DNA from: Chloroflexota bacterium
Lineage (GTDB): Bacteria > Chloroflexota > UBA11872 > VXOZ01
Length of the DNA stretch: 64,000 bases
Direction: 5' to 3'
Assembly: GCA_963662335.2 (NCBI GenBank)
Contig: CAXXVD010000002.1
Span: forward strand, 64,001 to 128,000
Shown: piece after piece, positions 22,200 through 28,707 of the stretch
How the letters are laid out: each line of letters starts with the position of its first letter
Numbering within the stretch: position 1 is the stretch's first letter
Notes under the pieces: model-generated
Seen by the model: the letters and a program-made list of their open reading frames with translations, nothing else
Databases searched by the model: none
What the model was told of the DNA's origin: nothing
Position numbers and translations under genes: made by a program

Positions 22200-22730
22200 C
22201 TAGATAAGCCCGGCTCCTTCAAGAGTTTGGTAAGCGCTTTCAATTGTCTGTCGATTGAATTTTGGCTTTATCTCGCCGACAGTCCTCAAGACTTCATCCT
22301 TAGACTGCTCTTCGTGCACCCCAGCAATAAAGTGGATTGTGGCAGAAAGCTCAAGCACATGGGTATCGAGAGAATTGAGTGCGCTAATCGCTCCATCGAT
22401 TTCTGCCCCATTAGAGAATTCCGATATGTCCTGTGCTTGCGACCAGGCTCCTCCATCTGCCGTACCCGGCGTCACATGAAATCCGAATCCGTCAGGGTCA
22501 GGATTGATGTCGACTAATCCAAGCGCCTTAGCAAGGGATAGCACACCGTCAAGATCATCCGAATAGGGACCAAAGTAATGTATCCTGAATCGGTACTCTA
22601 AAGGAGCGCCGACTGATTCTTGCAGAAAGTACGTAATCTTCTGGATCTTGGTCTTGCCAATGTCCTGACACGAGGAAACTATCCTCTCAACGATCGCCAA
22701 TCTAAATGACAGCAGTTGTTGGTCTCTCAT
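22200..22730 (-). CDS. YwgA/Panacea(SocA)/DarG-C-terminal-like protein
   Basis: GKTKIQKITYFLQ...FGPYSDDL...LELSATIHF...KPKF motifs; AGGAG RBS. Confidence 0.75.
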   Translation of the reverse strand: MRDQQLLSFRLAIVERIVSSCQDIGKTKIQKITYFLQESVGAPLEYRFRIHYFGPYSDDLDGVLSLAKALGLVDINPDPDGFGFHVTPGTADGGAWSQAQDISEFSNGAEIDGAISALNSLDTHVLELSATIHFIAGVHEEQSKDEVLRTVGEIKPKFNRQTIESAYQTLEGAGLI

Positions 22731-22742
22731 GGTTTGCTCCTT

Positions 22743-24050
22743 CTAGTTTACTATTGTGCCACAAAATCCTGCTATTTCTCTCTCTAAGGCTTCGTCTTCT
22801 CCAACGTCAGCATATACTCTAAACTGAATGACTTCGTCTAAGCCATACAGAGCCTTAGAGAGGCTCTTGAGAGAGGCCCACCTACCGTCTCTTCTTTGAA
22901 TCGACAACTCCTCGTCGCCCATTTTGTATCTCTCTGGATGGTCGGTTGCTTTGTCAGTCCAGATTTCGACATTGGGATAGTTGGCTTGCAACTCTTGAGG
23001 CAGCAGCATCGCGCGGTTAACTAACGCTGAGTCGGCGTGATCGCCAGTTTGAAAGACGGGCTTCGGGTGCTTTCGGGCGGCCAGTCTCCACGCCAGGTTC
23101 CTCGCGCCCTCGTCCCGACGCTCGTTCAACTCCGCCAAGACGTTCCAGTCACTCCATTTAATGTACTCTGCTACTTGGTCGGGGTAGTGTTCCAAGTCTA
23201 GCCTGTCTTGCAGTAGCTCATGAATGAAGTCGGTCAGTATCAGATCGTATGCGCGGCGAACCGCATGAAAATACACCTGGGTGAACATAAAATACCTTGC
23301 TAGAATAAATCCCTCTATTGCGTGAATGCCACCGTATTCAACTCCCAGCCTGAGAACGCCGTCCGGGTTTTCGTCATAGAGCGTAATCGTATCGATAATT
23401 CTGTCCAGGTCAAACGAGCCATATCGAACGCCGCAATACAATGAGTCGCGTAGCAGGTAGTCCATCTTGTCGACGTCCCACACACTGTCAATCAGCTCTC
23501 GCACGAATCCAACTTCATATATTCCTCTCTCTTGGAGTATGGCAACTACCCTCTGCGTAGTCACGCCGAAATTACGTTCCAAGTCGTCGATGATGGGACA
23601 TATCCCCATCTCAGGCGAGAGCACTATCTCTTCACTGTATTGTTCGTGCTGTTTGCCTTTTGGAAATAGCGTCTTCTCTCCCGTGTGAGAGAACGGCGCA
23701 TGGCCAATGTCGTGCAGCAGTCCAGCTAGGCGAGCCTCCAACACGATCTGATCCACTTTCGATTTGAATTCGCCCTCAGACCATCCTTGTCTCTCTTTTA
23801 GTAGCTGCTTGTGCTTAGGGTGCCGAAGTATCTTCTCGACGAATCGCCCCGCTAGGTGCATCACGCCCAATGAGTGGCCGAAACGAGAGTGCTCCGCGCC
23901 GTGATAAACGTATGAGGACAGTCCCAATTGCCGAATGCCGCGCAGCCGCTGAAAGACTGGCGTGTCGATTATCTCCTTTTCCCAATCGAATACACCAATA
24001 TACCCGTGTATCGGGTCTCTGAAAGTTCTGGTCGGTTCAGGCAAAGGCAT
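22743..24050 (-). CDS. HD-domain phosphohydrolase, SAMHD1/YwfO-like dNTP triphosphohydrolase
   Basis: RDPIHG, FQRLRGIRQLG, HSRFGHSLG, LLHDIGHAPFSH, DVDKMDYLLRDS, QVYFH. Confidence 0.92.
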   Translation of the reverse strand: MPLPEPTRTFRDPIHGYIGVFDWEKEIIDTPVFQRLRGIRQLGLSSYVYHGAEHSRFGHSLGVMHLAGRFVEKILRHPKHKQLLKERQGWSEGEFKSKVDQIVLEARLAGLLHDIGHAPFSHTGEKTLFPKGKQHEQYSEEIVLSPEMGICPIIDDLERNFGVTTQRVVAILQERGIYEVGFVRELIDSVWDVDKMDYLLRDSLYCGVRYGSFDLDRIIDTITLYDENPDGVLRLGVEYGGIHAIEGFILARYFMFTQVYFHAVRRAYDLILTDFIHELLQDRLDLEHYPDQVAEYIKWSDWNVLAELNERRDEGARNLAWRLAARKHPKPVFQTGDHADSALVNRAMLLPQELQANYPNVEIWTDKATDHPERYKMGDEELSIQRRDGRWASLKSLSKALYGLDEVIQFRVYADVGEDEALEREIAGFCGTIVN

Positions 24051-24189
24051 GGCGAGTCTCGGCAAGGACCTATCTTCTACTGAGGTGAGTTTAGCACTGA
24101 AGCGGTGACATAGTCTCGCGACTGTCGCTCAAAGCCGTAGTAGGGCAGGGTTTAGGCAGATGGTTAGTCTCACAGAGAACAAAACCCAA

Positions 24190-24378
24190 ATGGCCCGAGT
24201 CGCTCGACGACATCAAGGAACGCTATGCGGCGTTAGATTTGAAACTGGAGGTCGCTGGGCCGGAGGACATCGACGCCGCGCCTGCTGGTCTTTCCGTATG
24301 AGTACGACGACAGTCTGGCTAAGGTGGTGTTAGAGACGAGCGATTTCACAGCGGTCTGCCCGTGGACCGGACTGACGG
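24190..24378 (+). pseudogene. queF: Degenerate 5' copy of queF
   Basis: Colinear with 28267-28459; two frameshifting indels; truncated after VCPWTG. Confidence 0.85.
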
Positions 24379-24402
24379 CGGAAACCGTTCAGGAGGCGTC
24401 AT
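24376..24402 (-). pseudogene. First ~9 codons (MTPPERFPP) of a probable HEPN partner gene
   Basis: ATG overlaps the MNT 3' end; sequence switches abruptly to the queF remnant. Confidence 0.5.
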
Positions 24403-24718
24403 ACACGACAATTCCTTCTGCGAGCGCGGGCTTGATGACCAGCGCGTGGCTGTCCCGGTAGCGCTCTACGTCCGCGGGCGAGACCATTACGGCGTCTACC
24501 GCCGCGCCGACGCCGTGCAGCCTGCGGTAGACTTGCCCCACCAATTTGCGCGAGTGCCCGCCTTCTCGGACAATGAGCAGGTCCACATCGCTATTGGAGC
24601 CCATGTCGCCGCGAGCGGCAGAGCCGAAGAGGATGATCTTCTCCGGGCGGACAGTCTCGACAATCCGGCTGACGATGTCCGCCAATACCGCTTCATCGAG
24701 CGTCATGGGACAATCCAA
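24389..24718 (-). CDS. Minimal nucleotidyltransferase (MNT, MntA-like antitoxin)
   Basis: IILFGSAARG...SDVDLL motif. Confidence 0.9.
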   Translation of the reverse strand: MDCPMTLDEAVLADIVSRIVETVRPEKIILFGSAARGDMGSNSDVDLLIVREGGHSRKLVGQVYRRLHGVGAAVDAVMVSPADVERYRDSHALVIKPALAEGIVVYDAS

Positions 24719-24980: not shown

Positions 24981-25370
24981 ATGGCCACACTCAGCATATT
25001 CGTGAGTTTCGAGTTTGACAAAGACGAGAACCTCAAGAGCAAGTTCTACGCAGAGGCCAAGAGTGAGACGCACCATCGGGTGGTTAATAGGGCGCTAAAC
25101 GAAGCGTATCCGAGTAACGCTTGGAAGAAGAAGGCGCGGGAAGCCATAGTAGCAAGTGACGTTGTCGTCGTCTTGATCGGTCAGGACACGCACAACGCGC
25201 AAGGCGTCAGAGTGGAAACGGACATGGCGCGCGGCCGGCAGAAGCCAATTATCCAGATTAGGCCGCAGGGCAGCACACACACCGGGCTAAAGCATCTCAA
25301 CAAGCCAATCGCGTGGCACTGGCAGACCATCAACGCCAAGCTGGATGCTATAGCGCCGCGGAAACGTTGA
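24981..25370 (+). CDS. MTH538/ThsB-like TIR domain protein
   Basis: IFVSFEF, SDVVVVLIGQDT, GVRVE (catalytic Glu position), KPIIQI, terminal WxW. Confidence 0.85.
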   Translation: MATLSIFVSFEFDKDENLKSKFYAEAKSETHHRVVNRALNEAYPSNAWKKKAREAIVASDVVVVLIGQDTHNAQGVRVETDMARGRQKPIIQIRPQGSTHTGLKHLNKPIAWHWQTINAKLDAIAPRKR

Positions 25371-25413
25371 GCGGCCCCGTCAAGCTGCGGCATAACGGAG
25401 AGAGGAAGACGCG

Positions 25414-25854
25414 ATGGCAAGCGCAAACCTGGATGTAGAGTCCGCCGCCGTTCAGACTCATCTCACCATCATGCAAGACGTGATACGGCGCATGGCGGAG
25501 AACAGCCGCTCGTGCAAGGTATGGTGCGTCACGCTGGTTGCCGCCGTCCTGGTTTTGGCGGCGCAGAACGGCAACGCCGATCACGCCTTGATCGCGCTGG
25601 TTCCCGCGCTCCTCTTTCTCGTGCTCGACACCTACTACCTGGCTTTGGAGCGCGGCTTCCGCAATTCATACGACGCGTTTGTCCGCAAGCTGCATTGCGG
25701 CACGCTAACCCCCTGCGACCTCTACGTCGTCAAGCCAACGGAAGCCATCCCCAAGCTGTTCCTGCAATGCCTGCCGTCCTTCTCGATCTGGCCCTTCTAC
25801 GTGATGGTAGCGGGCATGGCAGTCATCCTTGCCCGGTGGTTGATAGCCCCTTGA
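25414..25854 (+). CDS. Three-TM membrane protein, TIR-associated candidate effector
   Basis: HLxxMQxVIxRMAxNSxxxKxW, LDTYYLALERGFR, SFSIWPFY; co-directional, 43 bp after the TIR gene. Confidence 0.75.
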   Translation: MASANLDVESAAVQTHLTIMQDVIRRMAENSRSCKVWCVTLVAAVLVLAAQNGNADHALIALVPALLFLVLDTYYLALERGFRNSYDAFVRKLHCGTLTPCDLYVVKPTEAIPKLFLQCLPSFSIWPFYVMVAGMAVILARWLIAP

Positions 25855-28239: not shown

Positions 28240-28707
28240 ATGAGCGGTAGCAAGAAGGAGGCGCCGGTGGCCGAGTCATTGGACGACATCAAGGAGCGCT
28301 ATGAAGCGCTTGACGTGAAACTGGACGTTGCCGGTGAGGAGGCCATCGACACCGCGCTCTTGCTGGTCTTTCCGTATGAGTACGACGACAATCCGGCTGA
28401 GGTGGTGATAAAGACCAGCGAGTTTACGGCGGTCTGTCCGTGGACCGGGCTGCCGGACACCGGCGACCTGACGATTACCTACGTGCCGGACTTGTATTGC
28501 CTCGAACTCAAGTCGCTCAAGTTCTACCTGCTTACCTACCGGCAGGTGGGCATCGTGCAGGAGCACGCCGCCGGCCGCATCTTGAACGACCTGGCGCAGG
28601 CGTGCCGCCCCCGCGCGCTGACCGTGCGCCTCGACTATACGCCCCGGGGCGGCCTGCACACGGTGGTCACCGCGCGCTACCCACCGGAGAAGGCTTCTTG
28701 CGCCTGA
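28240..28707 (+). CDS. queF: preQ0 reductase QueF (short type)
   Basis: EFTAVCPWTGLPD, ELKSLKFYL, QEH, PRGG motifs. Confidence 0.95.
   Translation: MSGSKKEAPVAESLDDIKERYEALDVKLDVAGEEAIDTALLLVFPYEYDDNPAEVVIKTSEFTAVCPWTGLPDTGDLTITYVPDLYCLELKSLKFYLLTYRQVGIVQEHAAGRILNDLAQACRPRALTVRLDYTPRGGLHTVVTARYPPEKASCA

Follow-up and report, generated by a model that had tools for sequence, protein, structure and literature searches.

A Chloroflexota gene pair encoding a minimal TIR protein and a three-helix membrane protein is probably a Thoeris-type module of the PDC-M50 family

The window analysed here, a 64,000-nucleotide (nt) stretch of contig CAXXVD010000002.1 from a Chloroflexota bacterium (assembly GCA_963662335.2, contig positions 64,001 to 128,000), carries two genes on the same strand that are separated by 43 nt, the first encoding a TIR protein of 129 amino acids (aa) and the second a membrane protein of 146 aa (Table 1). 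An earlier note on this DNA had proposed the pair as a candidate new signalling defence system. Both open reading frames (ORFs) lie where that note had placed them and have the sizes it gave; they are full length, each keeps every invariant residue of its family, and each is preceded by a purine-rich, Shine-Dalgarno-like stretch. A scan of the locus for promoters and terminators yielded nothing useful.

Table 1. Features of the gene pair and of its surroundings, in positions of the window
Feature	Position	Strand	Evidence or remark
thsB-like gene (129-aa minimal TIR, ATG start, proposed catalytic Glu79)	24981..25370	+	ORF; Pfam ThsB_TIR, PADLOC ThsB and PDC-M50B matches
Gene of three-transmembrane protein (146 aa, ATG start), PADLOC PDC-M50A family	25414..25854	+	ORF; PADLOC, AlphaFold2, hydrophobicity
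Shine-Dalgarno-like AGGGGGA, 4 nt 5' of TIR start codon	24970..24976	+	Read from sequence
Shine-Dalgarno-like GGAGAGAGGAAG, 5 nt 5' of membrane-protein start codon	25397..25408	+	Read from sequence
440-aa HD and HD_assoc_2 protein, weak dGTPase-like matches	within 22200-24065	-	Pfam, PADLOC, NCBIfam
176-aa protein like the C-terminal half only of antitoxin DarG, closely overlapping the HD gene	within 22200-24065	-	PADLOC 8.4e-14, NCBIfam 3.2e-11
Solitary MNT-type nucleotidyltransferase	24389..24718	-	NTP_transf_2 1e-10; PADLOC PDC-S09; weak MntA, HalB
184-nt direct repeat of the queF 5' end, diverged (79-86% identity)	24195-24378 vs 28271-28456		Brackets MNT, TIR pair and katG
Intact queF	28240..28707		katG lies between the TIR pair and queF

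The only Pfam family that the 129-aa protein matches above its cut-off is ThsB_TIR (PF08937; E 4.1e-10, 40.4 bits against a cut-off of 21.2, residues 7-98), with TIR_2 among its weaker matches; NCBIfam holds no family for this protein or for the membrane protein. In PADLOC, the TIR matches ThsB models with E-values down to 4.7e-5 and the PDC-M50B model at 6.5e-4, the generic ThsB models fitting it slightly better. Glu79, embedded in the sequence GVRVETD, is invariant in 21/21 close homologues and in 17/17 sequences of a further alignment, and the entire motif VVVLIGxDTHNAxGVxVETDxA is kept in 20 close homologues. When a profile of the 129-aa class was compared with solved chains, all matches were weak (8fz9, 0.0022; 8wcf, 0.0045; MTH538, 0.02; ThsB1 chains 9b7d and 6lhy, 0.04). 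At this level of similarity (E 0.002-0.04), Glu79 aligns in 8fz9, 8wcf and 9b7d with the Glu of the W-V-x-x-E motif, which we take to be the catalytic Glu of ThsB. The reading of this protein as a minimal TIR that retains the Glu is thus borne out by the family match, by the invariance of the residue and by its register with the solved TIR and ThsB chains.

The 146-aa protein has no Pfam family. It contains three hydrophobic segments (residues 34-50, 55-71 and 123-139), and AlphaFold2 models it with confidence (pLDDT 88.3, pTM 0.78): residues 11-52 form a long helix that enters the first transmembrane (TM) span, a tight turn leads into a second long helix (55-95) that leaves TM2, and a short helix (112-119) precedes TM3 (126-144). 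Because Lys and Arg residues number four in the N-terminus and six in segment 73-125, as against none in the loop at 53-58, the charge distribution puts the N-terminus and segment 73-125 on the predicted cytoplasmic side. Twelve residues (R26, N30, S31, R32, K35, W37, D72, Y74, Y75, L76, E79 and Y86) do not vary among 20 sequences, and R26, K35, E79 and Y129 are invariant across 62 more diverse ones; on the model, the most conserved positions cluster as a cytoplasmic patch that is polar and basic. The polar core motif noticed earlier in this protein is therefore real and conserved.

Structure comparison gave the membrane protein no solved relative. Foldseek found no match to its model in the PDB at E<=0.001, and the best Z-score of VIA-align against 48,161 chains was 8.6, with all matches being generic helical hairpins inside the range that the tool states to be noise for helical proteins. 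A structure search of the ESM Atlas, as a separate observation, returned a cluster of 311-aa proteins (184 members, 97% with a NUDIX domain) whose N-terminal part resembles the PDC-M50A fold (TM-score 0.67 by query); a possible fusion of such a membrane module to an ADP-ribose-type hydrolase domain is a lead only.

In PADLOC (PADLOC-DB v2.0.0) the membrane protein is recognized by all four PDC-M50A models, most strongly by PDLC04686 (1.1e-29; the others 1.2e-19, 1.1e-18 and 8.4e-15), with protein residues 14-140 aligned on positions 6-129 of the 134 in that model. PDC-M50 is made of the same two genes as the pair in the window, an M50A membrane protein and a TIR-like M50B protein, although the 129-aa TIR fits M50B only weakly. 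Because the membrane protein matches PDC-M50A and the TIR matches PDC-M50B, the pairing is, as judged from these profiles, already catalogued and not new, and the window holds an ordinary new copy of it. The available part of the source describes the PDC set as 145 untested candidates, found through "guilt by embedding" in BREX, DISARM and type I restriction-modification (R-M) systems (Payne et al., bioRxiv 10.1101/2024.01.29.577857). Pairs of the PDC-M50 type are likewise embedded in, or lie beside, R-M systems at several of the related loci described below. The comparison with profiles of known Thoeris and TIR systems, which the earlier note had suggested as a check, found matches, and in view of these, and of a TIR plus three-TM system already described and tested as type V Thoeris, the claim of a new system is not supported; the pairing has very probably been tested before under that other name.

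The two genes are linked far beyond this genome. Scanning one genome per species gave 136 relatives of the membrane gene, and the analysis used the best 80 loci. Most of these belong to metagenome-assembled genomes of Chloroflexota/Dehalococcoidia, and the others are labelled as Bryobacterales, cyanobacteria, Gemmatimonadota, Latescibacterota, Bacteroidales, Bacillota and more. At the related loci, 134 same-strand neighbour ORFs were scanned with Pfam, and a TIR hidden Markov model built from 17 Pfam-confirmed neighbours was run iteratively on every ORF there. In 67/80 loci, which come from many phyla, a ThsB-type TIR gene is the direct neighbour of the membrane gene and has the same orientation, so that the pairing is not chance; the association of the membrane family with TIRs, which the earlier note had made a point to check, is thereby found. 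The TIR gene lies only upstream, as in the window, in 16 loci, on both sides in 23 and only downstream in 28, leaving 13 with none. Upstream TIRs fall into two classes, the window's 129-aa class (phmmer E<1e-40 in 20 loci) and one of about 165 aa, and the downstream TIR, at about 188 aa, forms a third class. In Thoeris operons it is usual for one effector to have several ThsB genes.

The membrane family is large: a word-indexed search returned 1407 proteins at E<=1e-3, the best 120 of which were all 58-96% identical, and an exhaustive search returned 4334 clusters (50% identity) at the same threshold. It occurs in 39 plasmid records from many genera, where it is annotated as "hypothetical protein" or under an unrelated name, and it is patchy within the genus of the window, being present in 7/16 other species, most of them at least 95% complete. 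The genes that directly flank the module vary and encode, among others, AbiEii/AbiEi, type I R-M subunits and methylases, a ParE toxin, SIR2_2 and HEPN-DUF499 proteins, but also CoA transferases, UvrB/C and QueC/QueF. Such plasmid carriage, patchiness and varied flanks are the behaviour of a mobile defence module. We also observed that one genome of the same genus (G954) carries the module twice, with 2 kb between the copies (L110 and L116), and that a DUF1883-TIR_2 protein lies near the membrane gene at locus L064 and a SIR2_2 protein at L050.

The pair also fits type V Thoeris. In the part of the preprint text available, Yirmiya et al. (bioRxiv 10.64898/2025.12.03.692087, December 2025) map 29 putative Thoeris types and verify seven new ones; their type V joins a TIR to a three-membrane-helix effector "annotated as" PF10028 (DUF2270) and renamed ThsF, which is modelled as a homo-heptameric channel or ring with positively charged pockets between protomers. 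They report that type V occurs in about 1.2% of genomes, in diverse phyla and with especial enrichment in Bacteroidota, that 3' cyclic ADP-ribose (3'cADPR) triggers one of two tested type V systems, and that one TIR cluster is common to type I, type IV and the "DUF2270" effector. With type V as described there, the window shares a TIR gene and a small effector with three membrane-spanning helices. We consider it quite likely that PDC-M50A is the equivalent of ThsF, an identity that rests on circumstantial evidence.

Among Pfam families, DUF2270 is the one matched by most members of the membrane family, with all matches below threshold (7/62, best E 0.0012; the divergent members L100 and L101 at 0.025 and 0.027), and every DUF2270 alignment, whether from hhalign or sub-threshold, places TM1-TM2 in the same register, on profile positions of about 20-74. 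A model of a DUF2270 protein (pLDDT 78) also has, in a comparison that is qualitative only, the long hairpin, formed there by helices 2-38 and 43-87 and followed by a short helix and another TM helix, and it differs from the window protein by one extra C-terminal helix. On plasmids of Priestia (megaterium) and Terribacillus, a homologue (PDC-M50A, 1.8e-52 and 6.9e-48) directly follows a TIR gene whose product is recognized by type I ThsB models (2e-56 and 2e-81); these Bacillaceae pairs agree with the TIR cluster that the available preprint text assigns jointly to type I, type IV and the "DUF2270" effector. The family is also present in Bacillus thuringiensis. Among 251 genomes from the phylum of genome G301 (Bacteroidales), the PDC-M50A alignment found nine matches, six at E<=4e-26, and three of these six have a TIR alongside, while PF10028 itself matches one genome of this sample, not beside a TIR; the centre genome G301 was chosen because it bears the gene, and the unbiased figure is 5/250. 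As an observation on its own, the sequence of L101 appears intermediate between PDC-M50A and DUF2270.

We conclude that the pair is probably a two-gene Thoeris-type abortive-infection module, namely PADLOC's PDC-M50, and that it most probably corresponds to type V Thoeris (ThsB plus ThsF). The best-supported account of how it works is that the TIR makes a signal, which the small membrane protein would receive and answer by damaging the membrane. This much of the earlier proposal is supported, in agreement with the linkage in 67/80 loci, while its novelty as a system is not. Beyond gene structure, family membership, conservation and linkage, which were read directly, we infer the signal chemistry, the oligomer, the membrane damage and the protection. 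The 129-aa TIR would sense phage infection and cleave NAD+ by means of Glu79, giving an ADP-ribose-derived signal that, by analogy with the one type V system in the available text that responds to it, may be 3'cADPR. The signal would then bind at the meeting point of the membrane with the two helix extensions that reach from the TM1-TM2 hairpin into the cytoplasm, contacting R26, N30, S31, R32 and K35 on one extension and D72, Y74, Y75, E79, R80 and R83 on the other. The effector is presumed to be a homo-oligomeric ring, which the signal would open or rearrange, so that the membrane is breached and phage replication stops. A four-copy homo-oligomer prediction for the membrane protein scored 0.17 against a mark of 0.42, which speaks neither for nor against such a ring.

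Several other systems resemble this scheme in part. In type I Thoeris the effector is ThsA, with SIR2 and SLOG domains; no match to SIR2_2 or to STALD (SLOG) was found at E<=0.001 in the whole genome, which is 96% complete, the STALD half of this negative being weak since its control was positive in no control genome. The remark in the earlier note that no ThsA is nearby therefore extends, with the same reserve on STALD, to the genome. Type II (a TIR with a TM-Macro effector that responds to histidine-ADP-ribose, according to the available text) resembles the proposal in that a TIR signal activates a pore-forming, membrane-spanning effector, but the 146-aa protein has no Macro match and no room for such a domain. 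Type VII (ThsB with the SLATT-domain protein ThsH, responding to canonical cADPR) and the SLATT effectors of CBASS are, as far as the available descriptions go, also small nucleotide-signalled membrane proteins, believed to act as oligomers that breach the membrane; SLATT models do not match the window protein, and 1/62 relatives matches SLATT_6 weakly (E 0.0077). By protein-language-model features, the named cluster nearest to PDC-M50A is 8xMP, the RipA-type "octameric membrane protein" (PF24838; 0.85-0.87). PF24838 is matched weakly by 3/62 relatives (best 0.0013) but not by the window protein itself, and hhalign between the two families, at 4%, is in register but not significant.

A number of observations weigh against identifying the pair with type V, or against the signalling account as such. 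Neither the window protein, even at E<=1, nor its homologues on Bacillaceae plasmids match PF10028 in Pfam, and canonical DUF2270 proteins do not match the PDC-M50A models; hhalign between the membrane family and DUF2270 is not significant (0.8% with 62 against 8 sequences, 5.9% with 55 against 8). The eight canonical DUF2270 genes examined lie among housekeeping genes; four of them form fusions with DUF2179, and no TIR lies within 1.5 kb of them. The second type V system for which the available text gives a test was not triggered by 3'cADPR (10.64898/2025.12.03.692087), and the signal is accordingly not confidently transferable. For PDC-M50 itself, the available part of the source of the PDC set gives no experiment under that name and states that its candidates are untested (10.1101/2024.01.29.577857); the name PDC-M50 was not found in the literature searched. 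No sensor domain is obvious in the minimal TIR, and nucleoside 2-deoxyribosyltransferase families in Pfam match it weakly (E 0.0025 and 0.013).

The linkage, too, has its gaps on this side of the balance. Among the 13/80 loci with no adjacent ThsB-type TIR, three (L030, L036 and L048) break off next to the gene because the contig ends there, L038 encodes a 780-aa SEFIR/TIR_2-EAD2-VMAP-C protein downstream, L032 has a weak TIR_2 match and a further TIR about 1 kb away, and L062 has its membrane and TIR matches on a single ORF, beside a HEPN_Swt1-DUF499 giant; the remaining seven of the 80 (L022, L023, L034, L039, L040, L045 and L074) show none of these features. For the divergent members L098-L101, from the phylum of G301 (E 1e-45 to 6e-6), no TIR lies in the 1.5 kb around the gene. 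Of these four, one adjoins AbiGi, one a GH25 lysozyme-like gene, and one stands among housekeeping genes.

As for the distribution of PF10028, it occurs in 26/301 Chloroflexota genomes, in 1/251 genomes of the phylum of G301, where it is not beside a TIR, and in 0/401 of the phylum of G302, a figure that says nothing about Bacillus. The product name "DUF2270" is absent among the 39 plasmid matches, and none of the 120 listed Bacillaceae-type homologues has a precomputed Pfam family.

The same genome contains one PDC-M50A gene and two ThsB-type TIRs. The second TIR belongs to another pair, which lies outside the window on contig 1 (C1:215799-216704) and consists of a 129-aa ThsB_TIR protein (E 1.6e-9), a gap of 4 nt and a 170-aa membrane protein of the 8xMP family (PF24838, E 1.4e-36). 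PADLOC has no match for the 170-aa protein, and no named system was found for a TIR with 8xMP. Of 15 8xMP loci in Chloroflexota, the top five each carry a TIR gene immediately upstream.

A more tentative suggestion, which we regard as possible rather than likely, is that PDC-M50A is an effector family separate from ThsF. It may then belong, with 8xMP and DUF2270, to a broader class of small ring-forming membrane effectors, repeatedly coupled to minimal 129-aa ThsB TIRs, whose shared architecture would be a TM hairpin entered from an amphipathic helix, with a further TM helix late in the chain. The genome would in that case run two parallel TIR-to-membrane circuits, possibly with different signals.

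It is improbable that the roles are reversed, with the TIR acting as the killing effector through NAD+ depletion and the membrane protein as an activating sensor or anchor, no diffusible signal being read. The available text of Yirmiya et al. (10.64898/2025.12.03.692087) names this possibility for unverified TIR configurations, and the TIR of the window appears from its sequence to keep the Glu needed for NADase activity. The 23/80 loci in which two different TIR genes flank one membrane gene speak against such a reversal, however, as a many-TIRs-to-one-partner arrangement fits sensors that feed one effector. So does the closeness of the Bacillaceae plasmid partners to type I ThsB signal producers, and the conserved cytoplasmic polar and basic patch is, on the model, of the kind expected for nucleotide binding.

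We think it very unlikely that the window copy is a decayed or incomplete remnant, lacking a second, downstream TIR and lying in a rearranged region. A downstream TIR is present in 51/80 loci and missing here, a diverged 184-nt copy of the queF 5' end lies at 24195-24378, and katG stands between the pair and queF, unlike the arrangement in L001 and in the same-genus locus L112. Against this, both ORFs are full length with every invariant family residue kept, and the layout with an upstream TIR only is that of 16/80 loci and also of L112.

Least probable of all is a toxin-antitoxin-like, signal-free or housekeeping pair, such as a nucleoside-transferase-like enzyme tied to queuosine genes with a small membrane partner: the weak nucleoside 2-deoxyribosyltransferase matches of the TIR, queF directly after the pair in L001 and L112 and QueC-family genes before it in L020 and L029 would fit, but ThsB_TIR is the only family above cut-off for the TIR, and the flanking genes vary widely over the 80 loci (CoA transferases, UvrB/C, R-M, AbiE), and the pair occurs on plasmids and is patchy within the genus, so that the queuosine genes nearby appear to mark a local site of insertion and no functional association.

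The surroundings of the pair differ from the rest of the window in composition, with a G+C content of 0.49-0.52 over 22-24 kb as against about 0.64 elsewhere. The HD gene and the DarG-like gene found there may form a separate toxin-antitoxin-like or defence pair. No ORF for a HEPN partner lies downstream of the MNT gene, the space being occupied by the queF fragment. The earlier note had placed the pair about 1 kb from the HD module and the MNT gene, and the distances measured upstream of the TIR start are 916 nt and 262 nt, respectively. We rejected these genes as parts of the system, since they lie on the opposite strand and do not recur beside the pair among the related-locus neighbours scanned. 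None of the window's neighbours (HD, DarG-like, MNT, queF copy) recurs with the pair elsewhere, except that queF directly follows the membrane gene in L001 and L112; this position of queF, together with the repeat of its 5' end in the window, suggests a rearrangement or insertion at queF.

The link between PDC-M50 and type V Thoeris is not documented in the texts searched and cannot be obtained through Pfam PF10028, and annotation based on Pfam will miss systems that combine a TIR with PDC-M50A. The 129-aa TIR class and the second pair, of a TIR with 8xMP, suggest a greater variety among the small three-helix membrane effectors serving TIR signals than the named types cover. With the pair in the window, the very large family of TIR-plus-membrane-effector systems gains a member from the Chloroflexota.

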